NCBI RefSeq assembly: GCF_030013205.1
Contig: NZ_CP122648.1
From: Escherichia coli
Lineage (GTDB): Bacteria; Pseudomonadota; Gammaproteobacteria; Enterobacterales; Enterobacteriaceae
Direction: 5' to 3' (one strand)
DNA length: 64,000 bases
The notes beneath the pieces were generated by a model that made no database searches, had not been told where the DNA came from, and worked only from the letters and a program-made list of their open reading frames with translations. Position numbers and translations under genes: made by a program. Positions within the stretch are counted from its first letter, which is position 1. Every line of letters begins with the position of its first letter. Of the stretch, positions 46,709-64,000 are shown one piece after another.

Positions 46709-46723
46709 TGGTGTCCCCTGCAG
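46709..46723 (-). repeat. att-core repeat: copy of the argW tRNA 3' end (reverse complement of CTGCAGGGGACACCA)
   Basis: tggtgtcccctgcag with no tRNA body attached; a second degenerate copy lies at 59970-59988. Confidence 0.6.
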
Positions 46724-46796
46724 ACATCTACTTGAAGCGGCAGGGGATTGATTGGAATGGTGTTTTTTAGGTGTGAGAAATATTTTACCCGCTATT

Positions 46797-46997
46797 TTAC
46801 CCATTGGCGCGGCTTAAGAGCTTATTTTTGAATTCACAATGGTCACGATATAACCATCTTGCTCGCCCGTGGATAACTTTGGCTTTTGGCAGGTCGCCGG
46901 ACTTAATCCGGTCGTAGATGAAGGTTTTACCAAAGCCAGTATCAGCCATGATGAATTTCAAATCAACCAGGGAATCAGGCTGTAGTTCGTGTTGCAT
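46797..46997 (-). CDS. AlpA/Vis-family phage transcriptional regulator / excisionase-like protein
   Basis: 66 aa with the AlpA-type motif …TGFGKTFIYDRIKSGDLPKAKVIHGRARWLYRDHCEF…. Confidence 0.65.
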   Translation of the reverse strand: MQHELQPDSLVDLKFIMADTGFGKTFIYDRIKSGDLPKAKVIHGRARWLYRDHCEFKNKLLSRANG

Positions 46998-47344
46998 GAG
47001 TGCTATCTCCGAATAGGGAATCGAACCTGCAAATCAGGCAAGAAAAAACCGCCATCAGGCGGTTTGGTGTTCTTTCAGTTCTTCAATTCGAATATTGGTT
47101 ACGTCTGCATGCGCTATCTGCGCCCATATCATCCAGTGGTTATAGCAGTCGTTGATGTCCTCTGCTTCGATAAGGAGAAGAAATTCCCAATTACTCAAGA
47201 GCTATACGAGCGACTGGAAAGCGTCATCCATGATTACGATGGTGAAATCAGTTTATGCGAGGCGATTGGCACACTTGAATTGCTGAAGCAGTCATTGATT
47301 GAAGGCGCGAAAGAGTCCTTAGCCTGAAATAACAACTAAGTGAG

Positions 47345-47818
47345 ATGAATATGGCAGCACCAAAGGGCAACCGATTTTGGGAGGCCCGCAGTAGTCATGG
47401 GCGAAATCCTAAATTCGAATCGCCTGAGGCGCTGTGGGCTGCTTGTTGTGAATACTTCGAGTGGGTAGAAGCTAACCCGCTATGGGAGATGAAGGCATTC
47501 TCGTATCAGGGTGAAGTGATACAAGAGCCTATCGCCAAGATGCGAGCGATGACCATTATCCAAACCGTATGCCTGTTGGTAGCGGTAATCAGTTGGCGAA
47601 GTGGAACGGTTGGAGTTACTTCCAGCGAAAGGAACCTTGCGATAACGGGAGCGAATAATGCCGATTCAGCAACTTCCGCTCATGAAAGGTGTCGGAAAAG
47701 ACTTCCGAAACGCCGACTATATCGACTATCTGCCAGTGAATATGTTGGCTACACCCAAAGAAATCCTGAACAGCAGCGGATATCTTCGCTCATTCCCGGG
47801 CATTGCCAAACGTTCTGA
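47345..47818 (+). pseudogene. P22 gene 3-like small terminase, N-terminal ~70 codons only, fused to unrelated out-of-frame sequence
   Basis: [69 protein letters not shown] then diverges; overlaps the start of the gp10-like gene. Confidence 0.6.
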
Positions 47819-49076
47819 TGTGAACGGCGTATCGCGCGGAGTTGAGTACAACATGGCGCAGAGTGCTGTTTATCGCGTGTGTGGCGGCAAGCTGTACAAA
47901 GGAGAAAGTGAGGTCGGTGACGTCGCAGGAAGTGGTCGCGTATCAATGGCGCATGGTCGGACATCACAGGCGGTAGGCGTTAATGGTCAACTGGTCGAGT
48001 ATCGTTATGATGGCGCGGTCAAAACCGTCTCAAACTGGCCTACAGACAGCGGATTCACGCAGTATGAGTTAGGTTCTGTTCGTGACATTACGCGCTTACG
48101 TGGGCGTTATGCGTGGTCAAAAGACGGAACTGATTCATGGTTTATCACTGACCTTGAAGACGAATCGCATCCTGACCGTTACAGCGCACAATATCGTGCC
48201 GAGTCGCAGCCTGACGGCATCATCGGCATCGGAACATGGCGAGACTTCATCGTCTGCTTTGGTTCATCGACGATTGAATATTTCTCCCTGACTGGTGCAA
48301 CCACCGTTGGTGCCGCTTTGTATGTTGCACAGCCATCACTGATGGTGCAGAAAGGTATTGCTGGGACTTACTGCAAAACGCCATTCGCTGATTCTTATGC
48401 GTTCATCAGCAATCCGGCAACAGGTGCGCCGTCTGTATACATCATCGGCTCCGGTCAGGTGTCACCAATCGCCAGCGCGAGCATTGAGAAAATCCTCCGC
48501 TCCTACACTGCTGATGAACTGGCTGATGGCGTGATGGAATCGCTGCGGTTTGATGCGCATGAGTTGCTGATTATCCATCTTCCGCGCCATGTCCTCGTGT
48601 ACGACGCATCTTCAAGCGCCAATGGTCCGCAATGGTGTGTGCTGAAAACAGGCCTGTATGACCATGTGTACCGCGCTATTGACTTCATTTACGAAGGCAA
48701 TCAGATAACGTGCGGCGATAAGCTGGAGTCTGTTACCGGGAAATTGCAGTTCGATATATCTTCACAATACGAAAAACAACAAGAGCATATTTTATATTCC
48801 CCTCTAATAAAGGCAGATAACGCTTTAATAAATGACCTTGAATTAGAAACATCTGGCGGCGTGTGTGATAGAATAGATAAAATATTTATATCAGCCACTA
48901 CAGATGGAATTAGTTACGGTCGTGAGCAAATGGTCGTATTACAAAAACCATTTGTATATGAAAATCGCGTTTTATGGCGAAAGGTTGGTCGAGTTAGACG
49001 CCTCATTGGATTTAAATTCAGAGTTATTGCAAAAGGTCCTGTCACATTATCAGGCCTTTCTATTCGTGTAACATAA
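47658..49076 (+). CDS. P22 gp10-like tail accessory / head-completion protein
   Basis: 472 aa, [49 protein letters not shown]...; same length as remembered P22 gp10. Confidence 0.75.
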
Positions 49077-49097
49077 ATCGAAACTCAAGGAGTAGAT

Positions 49098-49631
49098 ATG
49101 TTAAGTGAAAACGCAAAAGATATCGAAGGATATGAAGGACTGTACGCCATCACTAATGATGGTAGAGTTTACTCGCATTCAAGAGTAAATTTGAGGGGAC
49201 GTCTTATTAAGGGTAGGTGGCTGAAGCATAATCATAACGTAAATGGATATAAGTATGTGTGTTTATATAAGGATGGCGTAAAAAAGAACATACTAATACA
49301 TAAGCTTGTTGCATCTCACTTTGTTGGTGGATTTGCTGAAGGGTTACAGGTAAATCATATAGATGGTGATAAATATAATAATAACTATCTAAATCTTGAA
49401 TGGGTTACTCCATCAGGAAACATCTCACACTCATATGGATTGGAGTCGAGAGGTAATGTAAAAGGAGAAAGGAATGGTAATTCTAAAATATCTAATGATG
49501 ATGTCATAAAGATAAAAGAAATGGTTGCCAATGGATTTCCTCAGTGTGAAGTTGCTAAATTATTTGGAATTCACAATTCAAAGGTTAGTAGAATTGTAAA
49601 TGGCAAGGCATGGAGGCATGTTAATGGCTGA
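49098..49631 (+). CDS. HNH homing endonuclease (NUMOD4 + HNH + C-terminal HTH)
   Basis: [17 protein letters not shown] (NUMOD4-like), [22 protein letters not shown] (HNH); markedly AT-rich relative to flanks. Confidence 0.75.
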
Positions 49632-62823: not shown

Positions 62824-62949
62824 TATTTGCTCCTGTAATACATTTTTTTACTTACGCCGATTTTTTCCATATTGCGTAATACATTCCAGCCGATTTTGTT
62901 CTCGTAATACGCTCACAATACTGTTGTATTACGCTTTCTTATATCGCGG
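62824..62949. promoter_or_regulatory. Divergent intergenic control region with repeated GTAATACATT / CGTAATAC motifs
   Basis: gtaatacatt at 62835-62844 and 62876-62885; cgtaatac at 62903-62910; gtattacg at 62926-62933; gccgatttt repeated twice. Confidence 0.5.
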
Positions 62950-63222
62950 GTGTTAAATCCCGGCATAAACAATCAGGGAGGCAACACGATGAAAAAACAA
63001 AAGAAAATGCGATGCGTATTACGCTGTATTCGTATCCCGCACGAAATCGACCATAAAATAAATCAGATATGTGAGGACAGAGAGATGAACTACTCCCAGT
63101 GCGTCAGAATGTTTATCAGTCAGGGAATTAAGGCCGGGGAAAAGCAGGAAGAAGACCACAACGGGCGCAATGTAGCGGGGGATGTGTGGGCCTGGGCAAA
63201 TGACCAGAACCACACGACGTAA
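62950..63222 (+). CDS. Small ribbon-helix-helix-like DNA-binding protein, tentative
   Basis: …MRCVLRCIRIPHEIDHKINQICEDREMNYSQCVRMFISQGIKAG… fits a beta-strand then helix-helix RHH pattern; true start may be the Met at 62989. Confidence 0.4.
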   Translation: MLNPGINNQGGNTMKKQKKMRCVLRCIRIPHEIDHKINQICEDREMNYSQCVRMFISQGIKAGEKQEEDHNGRNVAGDVWAWANDQNHTT

Positions 63223-63272
63223 TACAGAAATAACGCAGCCGGTCACACTCGCTGGCTGTGTTATACAAATCA

Positions 63273-63455
63273 CTATGAAGTTTTCGACTTCCTGCGCTTA
63301 GTAATGCGTACAAACGACTCAAGCGTACAAAAACAAGCCCCACACTCAATATTGTTGCACTGGTAATACGTTCTGTAGATGTTTTGTTCGTGTTCTTCCA
63401 ACGAACGACCACGGGTGCGAGCTGAAGCGCCACAGGCCGGGCAAGGGAAAGACAT
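63273..63455 (-). CDS. ogr: Ogr/Delta-family zinc-finger late-gene activator
   Basis: 60 aa, CPACG…YYQCNNIECGACFCTLESFVR matches the Ogr C2C2 pattern. Confidence 0.7.
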   Translation of the reverse strand: MSFPCPACGASARTRGRSLEEHEQNIYRTYYQCNNIECGACFCTLESFVRITKRRKSKTS

Positions 63456-63745
63456 ATCGCGCTCCTCTTACTGGCGTGAAATTTAACCTATTATATCTTC
63501 CGTTGCCTCCTCTGGCTGTATCAAATAAATCCGCGATGGTCGCTGCGTATTACGCGCAGACACACCGTTCCCATGCTCACTCCTCACATTCCCCGTATCA
63601 ATTCTCTCTTGCCGTAAGAACGGCTCTGGCTGGCGATAAAACTAACCCGGTCAGGCATTCCCGCAGTCTTTAGCGAAAGATGTAATTTACCCCCTGAAAC
63701 GCGGGCTGTTCCCCCGTCACCTGCGCGCGAAAAACTCACCGTTTT

Positions 63746-63844
63746 TTGTGCACGCACGAAATCGCCCTCCGGGCGCGCCAGTACCGGGCCGGATGGGCAA
63801 AAAGTTACTCTAAAAAATTGTGCAAATTTGTGCACTTTTGTGCA
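63746..63844. repeat. Phased TTGTGCA direct repeats (4 copies, last 3 spaced 10 bp)
   Basis: ttgtgca at 63746-63752, 63818-63824, 63828-63834 and 63838-63844. Confidence 0.5.
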
Positions 63845-64000
63845 GATGAACAACAGCGTCAAAAAGAGTGCTTTTGAGAGATTTTTTATGGCAACTGCGC
63901 CGCGTGTATTACGTTTTTACCATCCCCGCCGCGCATGTACATACTTCATTTTTCTGCCAAACAACAGGGCAACTCCCCGTGACTGACAGCCCCAAAAAAT

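Follow-up and report, generated by a model that had tools for sequence, protein, structure and literature searches.

Introduction

KplE1 is a 10.2-kb defective prophage at the tRNA gene argW; its recombination core is the 16 nt CTGCAGGGGACACCAT, and it can still be excised by IntS together with TorI (PMC2951348). Serial integration, or stacking, at a tRNA gene is a well-known phenomenon, and studies of P4-like elements mention tandem elements (PMC8628076). Among phage satellites, the phage-inducible chromosomal islands (PICIs) of Gram-negative hosts often carry capsid homologues and helper cos sites, and in SaPIbov5 a satellite-encoded capsid homologue makes small capsids (PMC6092414, PMC10111431). 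Here we describe the argW locus in a 64,000-nt stretch of Escherichia coli DNA (contig NZ_CP122648.1), called the window below. Positions 46709–64000 are very probably the left two-thirds of a stack of about 26 kb, in which two mutually independent integrative elements occupy the argW 3′ end. The outer one (island 1, 46709–59969, 13.3 kb) is a defective P22-like prophage of the KplE1/CPS-53 type, while the one next to the tRNA gene (island 2, 59970 to window-equivalent 72641, 12.7 kb) reads, from its gene content, as an intact P4-related phage satellite.

A preliminary description of this DNA, made from the window alone, had recognised tandem phage-derived islands with two copies of the argW 3′ end, the second of them degenerate. 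Island 1 is indeed a prophage remnant, but the right-hand island is better described as a phage satellite than as a second remnant. What the present analysis adds is a new interpretation of the degenerate copy, population evidence for the order of integration, and the recognition of island 2, by sequence, as an intact satellite that has an unusual set of genes and P88-like peduoviruses as its probable helpers.

Results

The argW core copies and the intact tRNA gene

From 46000 to 64000 the window shares 100% identity with the chromosome of ETEC1748 (NZ_CP122719.1), an E. coli strain from pig faeces in Belgium, and with five sister isolates; the DNA past the right end of the window was read in ETEC1748. 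Window coordinates equal NZ_CP122719.1 coordinates minus 1503195. Features past the window end are given in the extended locus L001 (NZ_CP122719.1 1545195–1592000), where the window coordinate is the L001 coordinate plus 41999.

Both copies of the argW end are real. The 15-mer TGGTGTCCCCTGCAG, which is the reverse complement of the final 15 nt of argW as read in ETEC1748 and K-12, was found once in the window, at 46709–46723 on the + strand. An edit-distance scan with the 20-nt argW 3′ end as query gave two matches only, both on the + strand: 46709–46728, with two substitutions, and 59970–59988, with one substitution (G-to-A) and one deletion (a missing C). None of 200 shuffled controls gave any match at edit distance ≤2. 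The first copy is the distal attachment (att) site of island 1 and corresponds to pawZ of K-12: the homology to K-12 (98%) begins exactly at 46709, and the same 15 nt are annotated as pawZ beside torI in K-12. We found no point in favour of the idea that the short repeats resemble a tRNA end by chance alone; it is refuted by this coincidence of boundaries, since both copies lie exactly where homology to other strains starts or stops; with the shuffled controls also against it, its probability is negligible. Proper alignment thus upholds the kinship of the repeats to the tRNA 3′ end.

The only tRNA found in the window by ARAGORN is a tRNA-Ala(GGC) at 1920–1995; none lies within 46709–64000, in agreement with the preliminary description, which had placed the real argW to the right together with a second integrase. 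Both are present there. An intact tRNA-Arg(CCT) lies at L001 30643–30717 (window-equivalent 72642–72716), 8.6 kb right of the window end, and agrees with K-12 argW in every one of its 75 positions. Directly beside it, 178 nt away, is the gene of a 420-aa tyrosine recombinase, which has 52.5% identity with P4 Int across 417 aa (E 4e-155). The extension in ETEC1748 therefore bears out the earlier proposal that a second element separates intS from the real argW.

Each island occurs alone at argW in other strains

Three states of the locus are known. Island 1 stands alone, directly beside argW, in ETEC4068 and several O139:H1 strains, at 99.97% identity and with the same pseudogenes; these strains have an intact tailspike gene and no satellite, and in ETEC4068 the junction between island 1 and argW reads ...CTGATAAATGGTGTCCCCTGCAGGAATCG.... 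The satellite stands alone between dsdC and argW in TOE17 and ETEC1732. Both are present in the window. Because each island is found alone at argW in other strains, they are two separate elements that integrated successively, which supports the serial integration proposed earlier.

The same strains bear on whether the 26 kb could be a single composite island, arriving and moving as one unit. The sole identical 15-nt IntS core pair is the outermost one, formed by 46709–46723 and the argW end, and for this reason IntS/TorI might excise both islands together, which would in principle allow joint movement. However, other strains carry each half on its own at this site, each half has an integrase and paired arm repeats of its own, and the satellite core also occurs at hpt–gcd with a different integrase module. 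We consider a composite island extremely improbable.

Origin of the middle junction

Junction alignment showed that the distal end of the satellite in TOE17 and ETEC1732 reads ATGGTGT-CCCTGCAGAAATCATCTTAATT, with the same 19 nt and the same right flank as in the window. Satellite-only strains thus also lack the C and show the G-to-A change, and both differences are therefore part of the satellite's own attP rather than later decay. The tRNA-proximal junction is wild-type argW, which places strand exchange within (A)TGGTGTCCC. The left flank of the junction in the window is the intS–argW spacer of ETEC4068; 59970–59988 (+ strand) is therefore a hybrid of the two elements, with the island 1 intS arm on its left and, from the C-run rightwards, the satellite attP half (TGGTGTCCC-TGCAGAAATC). 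The copy that had been called degenerate does differ from argW by one deletion and one substitution, but it is no decayed duplicate.

A repeat scan located GTACCCGTTT twice at 60045–60066 (+ strand), as candidate arm-type sites of the satellite integrase. Copies also lie beside the satellite int gene, at L001 30479 and 30509, and there is one other near-match in 27 kb. In E. coli DLI.6n (locus L006) a 98%-identical satellite core lies between hpt and gcd with a different int–alpA segment, and this segment and about 150 bp beyond the distal core have been replaced jointly. These pieces are contiguous only in the circular form, and the joint replacement therefore supports the proposed attP. The satellite circle would be expected to have the junction ...GCGATGGTGTCCCTGCAGAAATC... 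/ ...GAGAAGTTGCGATGGTGTCCCTGCAGAAATCATCTTAATT....

Most E. coli copies of the satellite core sit between hpt and gcd rather than at a tRNA gene, with a different integrase/AlpA cassette. ETEC1732 and ETEC1734 seem to hold two satellite copies, one per site (argW and hpt–gcd).

Order of integration

ETEC4068 is without both the IS1 insertion of island 1 and the satellite, and its flanking protein accessions are the same as those of ETEC1748. That the ETEC1748 lineage gained IS1 and the satellite is the more parsimonious history, because the alternative needs two precise losses. We infer, with high confidence, that the satellite arrived second, after island 1. The chromosome would already have carried the decayed island 1 beside argW when the satellite integrated, by tyrosine-recombinase exchange within the last ~10 nt of argW, (A)TGGTGTCCC. 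Its entry would have rebuilt argW on the integrase side, displaced island 1 by 12.7 kb, and left behind the hybrid junction at 59970–59988, the right half of which would be the satellite's imperfect copy of the tRNA end.

Two points tell against this order. The junctions alone cannot give it; a KplE1-type phage entering the distal pseudo-site of the satellite would leave an identical sequence. In addition, precise excision could in principle have removed the satellite from ETEC4068.

In the reverse order, the satellite would have come first to argW and a KplE1-type phage would later have entered its distal argW-like site and then decayed. The same junction sequences are expected if IntS exchange took place left of the C-run, and satellite-only loci do exist. 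We nevertheless regard this order as unlikely. The distal site is one C short of the 16-nt IntS core (core from PMC2951348), and ETEC4068, with the same island 1 pseudogenes beside argW, must then have precisely lost both IS1 and the satellite. Moreover, the satellite is the tRNA-proximal element in all stacked loci examined in detail, namely the window and E92, where a different, more complete IntS prophage is likewise distal to the satellite. Matches of the left flank suggest that ETEC1701 and K_EC180 are stacked like the window, with the satellite tRNA-proximal there too. In locus L004, however, the replication module is 11–12% divergent from that of L001 while int and the capsid gene are ~99% identical, and because of this mosaicism the stacked loci are not proven to be independent events.

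Gene content of the satellite

From argW leftwards, island 2 carries genes for a P4-type Int and AlpA, isrK-like and C4/CI-family RNAs, four small open reading frames (ORFs), an 889-aa Toprim primase, a 333-aa P2-type recombinase, an iteron inverted repeat, a cos-like region, an Ogr/Delta finger, a divergent 77-aa ORF and, at the att end, a 236-aa helical protein, a 423-aa capsid homologue and MazEF. The window ends inside the satellite, just before the putative origin. All satellite genes are intact, and their ratios of nonsynonymous to synonymous substitution (dN/dS) are 0.03–0.27 across five strains.

AlpA matches Pfam Phage_AlpA (E 5.5e-17) and is 34% identical to P4 orf88. The C4 RNA (Rfam RF01695) lies at L001 27525–27612 and scores 79.7 bits against a gathering score of 45; it stands side by side with an isrK RNA (Rfam, 52.1 bits), and the pair (L001 27525–27719) is inside an ORF annotated as Icd-like, so that this annotation may be partly spurious. 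The 889-aa Toprim protein takes the position of P4 alpha but is barely similar to it (BLAST E 0.002). Three base pairs downstream of its gene, at L001 22632–23633, is the gene of the P2-type tyrosine recombinase with an Int_N domain. This second recombinase is kept under purifying selection in the E. coli and Klebsiella members (dN/dS 0.07–0.10), whereas the Pectobacterium relative has none. The observed integrations do not use it; multimer resolution would be one guess at its role.

A perfect inverted repeat of 31–42 bp with a 240-bp AT-rich spacer lies past the window end, at L001 22061–22386 (window-equivalent 64060–64385), and its spacer is packed with GGTTACA/TGTAACC iterons arranged as mirror images. 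In ETEC1732 the two arms and every iteron show a concerted change to CGGTTACA, and the adjacent primase and P2-type recombinase genes are 11–12% divergent. The repeat is probably the replication origin of the satellite, co-evolving with its initiator. An invertible switch was considered and rejected: TOE17 and ETEC1732 are both colinear over this segment, the interior of which forms a symmetric GGTTACA iteron array.

At the att-proximal end, mazE–mazF (60206–60798, + strand; PemK_toxin E 4e-25, weak MazE matches) form cargo that is kept in E. coli members and absent from the Klebsiella and Pectobacterium relatives. PADLOC gave no defence-system match for MazEF or other satellite proteins. The Ogr/Delta-type zinc-finger late-gene activator (60 aa; 63273–63455, − strand; Pfam Ogr_Delta E 3e-11) is 39% identical to P4 Delta over 49 aa and has a single domain like Ogr, compared with the 166 aa of Delta. 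The 77-aa ORF (62989–63222, + strand) is possibly a ribbon–helix–helix regulator, with weak CopG/RelB matches only (E 0.07–0.19), and has syntenic counterparts in the Klebsiella and Pectobacterium satellites. The genes that the preliminary description had named to the right of the second core copy thus hold for the toxin of a toxin–antitoxin pair, the capsid protein and the Ogr-like protein; the ribbon–helix–helix assignment comes down to these weak matches, and the scaffold-like protein has no family match.

Several P4 functions were looked for. The epsilon derepressor had no match in the E. coli element (Pfam, PHROG, BLAST), and a syntenic 99-aa ORF of the Pectobacterium relative matches Derepression (PF25738). 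No psu was found by BLAST, Pfam or hhalign, and the capsid homologue holds the position next to att. No small terminase or packaging-redirection gene was recognised with Pfam, PHROGs and NCBIfam.

The 8-mer GTATTACG occurs 10 times in the 46.8-kb locus, where 1.07 copies are expected. Seven copies cluster at window 62875–63913, around the 236-aa gene's promoter, the 77-aa ORF, ogr and the upstream gap, and one further copy separates the C4 RNA from isrK. We regard the 8-mer as a candidate operator for a regulator of the satellite.

A diverged capsid homologue and its partner

The gene at 60842–62113 (− strand) encodes a divergent homologue of the P2-family major capsid protein (Phage_cap_P2, E 5e-73), 423 aa long with an N-terminal extension of ~110 aa. 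It aligns with P2 gpN (7jw1) at 191 bits over residues 110–419, falls below the NCBIfam equivalog cut-off (TIGR01551), and reaches no more than 39% identity with any capsid among 50,697 phage records. Its relatives in Enterobacterales form a clade of their own, consisting of 393–497-aa proteins of Salmonella, Klebsiella, Erwinia and Pectobacterium with 42–51% identity; a second database group consists of true phage capsids at 33–41% identity. The gene has a dN/dS of 0.09–0.20. Inspection of the alignment by eye showed that the family has a common N-terminal helix of ~45 aa followed by a variable linker, and this helix is possibly a tethered scaffold.

The 236-aa protein (62113–62823, − strand) is all-helical, is always encoded upstream of the capsid homologue, and is under similar constraint (dN/dS 0.08–0.20); its syntenic homologues in Klebsiella and Pectobacterium are 28–29% identical. 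Comparisons with Sid and Psu were negative by BLAST, phmmer against the PDB, and Pfam, and a search with a four-sequence profile returned 13 close relatives only and did not reach Sid. The protein has Sid's length and shares a W..GGV..E motif with it at the same position, while hhalign to P4 Sid gave E 0.02 and a probability of 2.4%. The AlphaFold model (predicted local distance difference test, pLDDT, 74) is a long helical hairpin, with which a Foldseek search of the PDB placed P4 Sid (7jw1_E) at rank 4 (E 0.11, TM 0.45), among generic coiled coils. The resemblance to Sid is suggestive only, and the protein is a possible Sid-like scaffold.

In Klebsiella and Pectobacterium the same module of ogr, 77-aa ORF, ~240-aa protein and capsid homologue lies downstream of int, alpA and primase. 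The capsid module is present in 56 of 5426 complete E. coli genomes (~1%), and the lineage also extends to Salmonella, Klebsiella, Erwinia and Pectobacterium.

In favour of a decayed P2-like prophage remnant are the capsid gene of the P2 family, the ogr-like gene and the 333-aa P2-type integrase with an Int_N domain. Against such an origin, the right-hand island has no pseudogenes and all tested genes are under purifying selection; Klebsiella and Pectobacterium have elements of the same ~12–13-kb architecture (int, alpA, primase, ogr, 77 aa, ~240 aa, capsid); and its capsid protein belongs to a separate clade, no closer than 39% to that of any phage. The island also has its own primase, iteron origin and C4-type RNA, while portal, terminase and tail genes are absent, and the P2-type integrase, absent from the Pectobacterium relative, is accessory. 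We therefore consider a prophage remnant very improbable and treat island 2 as a satellite below.

A cos-like region points to a probable P88-like helper

The 160-bp region at 63685–63845 is 79–82% identical to a non-coding stretch that phage P88 (Xuanwuvirus) and Peduoviridae related to it have 290–450 bp downstream of their portal gene. The homology consists of two nearly identical blocks around a divergent 25-nt spacer, and the P2 cos has the same position relative to gene Q as the P88-like stretch has to the portal gene. The motif TTGTGCA occurs three times, 10 bp apart, at window 63818–63844 (and also at 63746), is conserved in the cos regions of P88-type phages, and may be a terminase-binding element. 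We take the region as a candidate cos (packaging) region copied from a P88-like peduovirus.

The region matches 1122 genomes, ~55 of them at 93% or more (the satellites) and 1026 at 80–90%. P88-like terminase/portal DNA is present in 1161 genomes, a number close to the 1122 with the cos-like stretch. In ETEC1748 the cos-like stretch has a second place, and so does the combined query of capsid module and P88 portal; the capsid module alone has one place in sister strains. ETEC1748 therefore has a P88-like portal gene, its presence being read from these BLAST place counts. Among the 5426 genomes, carriage of the satellite is associated with a P88-like portal gene, which 37 of the 56 satellite carriers have, compared with 1046 of 5370 others. 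The probable helper of the satellite is thus a P88-like peduovirus.

The satellite probably spreads as P4 does. It would be silenced by the C4/CI-type RNA, excise with Int and AlpA, replicate by the primase-helicase at the iteron origin, and use the Ogr/Delta-type activator. A P88-like peduovirus would package it through the copied cos region, and the capsid homologue and its 236-aa partner would act on capsid assembly. More tentatively, we suggest that island 2 may represent an uncharacterised lineage of peduovirus satellites with its own diverged gpN-family capsid protein in the place of Psu and a Sid-like 236-aa partner, the two of which would build or resize heads filled via the copied P88-type cos; we hold this fuller proposal at less than even confidence.

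A number of observations weigh against this picture. No circular or packaged form was observed. The P2/P4 cos 19-mer had no match at ≤3 mismatches, and short-word BLAST against the P2/P4 cos junctions found nothing significant; 63685–63845 gives a candidate cos region and not an exact cut site. Ogr/Delta-type promoter dyads (TGT-N12-ACA) are lacking inside the satellite, and their count in the locus is no higher than chance. The P88-like prophage of ETEC1748 is known only as an extra BLAST place, without position or completeness, and the odds ratio for co-occurrence with the portal gene (8, or 5.9 by a conservative count) is uncorrected for clonal relatedness. Alignments by eye to the P2/P4 cos 19-mer at 12–13 of 19 positions were orientation-ambiguous and were dropped.

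Island 1 and the flanking DNA

The recombination module of island 1 appears complete in sequence, with intS, torI, core copies and arm-type repeats at both ends. The intact gene of the recombination directionality factor TorI (66 aa; 46797–46997, − strand; RefSeq WP_001163428.1) has 98% DNA identity to K-12 CPS-53. Motif clustering identified two TTTTACCC repeats on the torI side (46783–46802, + strand) as candidate IntS arm-type sites; TTTTACCC clusters at both ends of island 1, and just two of its seven occurrences in 27 kb fall elsewhere. At the other end, a repeat scan found two copies of GGGTAAAA and one of TTTTACCC at 59809–59853, the same position as the arm sites of KplE1 attL (PMC2951348). 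The intact intS gene (58651–59808, − strand) encodes a 385-aa tyrosine integrase, annotated as IntS and with the Pfam architecture Arm-DNA-bind_3 / Phage_int_M / Phage_integrase. The preliminary description had called it a P4-type integrase about 160 bp from the second core copy. The distance is correct, with the start of intS at 59808 lying 161 nt away, but the protein belongs to the P4 family only in a broad sense (35% identical to P4 Int over 402 aa) and is an IntS of the KplE1 type.

Between the two ends, a decayed block of P22-like late genes occupies 47351–53422 (+ strand; RefSeq annotation with pseudogene flags). It contains partial small terminase, gp4, tail needle and acyltransferase genes, genes for a gp10-like protein and a NUMOD4 protein, a 665-aa ORF, an Arc repressor gene on the − strand and the 5′ part of the tailspike gene, and its decay pattern is common to ETEC4068. 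The tailspike gene is interrupted by IS1 (53735–54502, − strand; annotated IS1 transposase), a 768-bp insertion relative to ETEC4068 with an 8-bp junction overlap. An O-antigen modification cluster with gtrA, a DUF2142 gtrC-type gene and a glycosyltransferase gene follows at 55862–58500 (− strand; RefSeq annotation).

To the left of island 1, a csc sucrose cassette (cscR, cscA, cscK, cscB; window 41141–46708) stands where dsdC and the 5′ part of dsdX were, and its right end falls exactly at the argW core copy. Its final 441 bp, with a 50-aa DUF4942 fragment, occurs once each in 2644 of the 5426 E. coli genomes and may be the remains of an older argW island. Farther left, in core chromosome unrelated to the stack, are two copies of an IS200C transposase gene (window 4574–5032 and 30356–30814) and an InsQ/TnpB gene (window 1–906).

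Discussion

The stack is a clean worked example of a tRNA gene collecting mobile elements, with all three locus states in sequenced strains. As the middle junction shows, an att copy that looks decayed can simply belong to the incoming element, as its imperfect att half, which matters for the automated delimitation of islands. The satellite is of more interest than the stacking: it joins P4-type immunity and integration to a PICI-like layout, carries a capsid homologue of its helper's family, and suggests as its helpers the P88-like peduoviruses, which ~20% of E. coli genomes contain. In the searchable literature, itself incomplete, we found no account of this satellite lineage, no paper connecting P88 or Xuanwuvirus to satellites, and none on P4-like elements that have a gpN homologue. 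If confirmed, capsid-homologue-based piracy would extend to the P2 family, in a tractable E. coli system found in enterotoxigenic strains of livestock.

Island 1 is a variant of a textbook cryptic prophage. It shares with KplE1 the argW site and core, of which its left end carries 15 of the 16 nt found in K-12, and the order from the argW side through intS and the gtr genes to torI and the core copy; both are defective. Homology to K-12 CPS-53/KplE1 is limited to the ends (46709–47047 with torI, 98%; 58248–59988 with gtrA/intS, 90.7%), whereas the interior differs, consisting here of P22-like late-gene remnants and IS1, within 13.3 kb compared with 10.2 kb in K-12. In contrast to KplE1, island 1 no longer adjoins argW, its intS-side core is one C short because of the later satellite junction, and its left neighbour is the csc sucrose cassette rather than dsdC. 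As in other tandem tRNA arrays, there is one att-related copy per junction and an intact tRNA gene at the proximal end only. However, two different integrases of one broad family are involved here and their cores overlap without being identical, so that the middle junction is a hybrid matched perfectly by neither site pair.

The satellite resembles P4 in several respects. Both integrate at a tRNA 3′ end by a P4-family integrase, both have an AlpA/orf88-type regulator and an Ogr/Delta-type finger, and both have a C4/CI-family RNA upstream of small ORFs and a large primase gene. A copy of a peduovirus helper's cos and a size of about 12 kb are shared with P4-like satellites (PMC8628076; PMC10085698), and cargo lies next to att, as in the psu–int hotspot (PMC9122126). 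Unlike P4, the satellite is without psu and without a detectable epsilon, has sid as a weak resemblance only, and has a primase barely similar to alpha. Its int gene is beside alpA, whereas P4 int is downstream of alpha and crr; its candidate cos is a homologue of the P88-type region instead of the P2/P4 19-mer; and it has a capsid homologue and a conserved second tyrosine recombinase of the P2 type.

Compared with the Gram-negative PICIs EcCICFT073 and PmCI172, the satellite has the same order of int, alpA, primase, origin and morphogenesis genes and likewise a copy of a helper's cos. Its int, alpA, primase and origin all run in one direction, with the iteron repeat downstream of the primase and second integrase genes. 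No terS, ppi or rpp genes were recognised, and in contrast to the PICIs its immunity region is of the P4/C4-RNA type and an Ogr/Delta activator is present. EcCIMP1, a PICI mobilised by the argW phage Kapi1, proved to be unrelated; it sits at a tRNA-Thr gene and is without the satellite's genes. The full head module of a capsid-forming PICI (capsid, protease, portal, head–tail adaptors, terL) is absent, and the satellite has instead a capsid homologue and one partner in 12.7 kb. In common with the PICIs and with the Ccm protein of SaPIbov5, it encodes a homologue of the major capsid protein of its helper's family; that family is here the Peduoviridae, and the homologue is of the P2 family rather than of the lambda-E or HK97 type. 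For the capsid genes of EcCICFT073, transfer is reported to be unchanged when they are deleted. If the proposed role in capsid assembly is correct, the capsid homologue would be the P2-family counterpart of SaPIbov5 Ccm or of the capsid-forming satellites.

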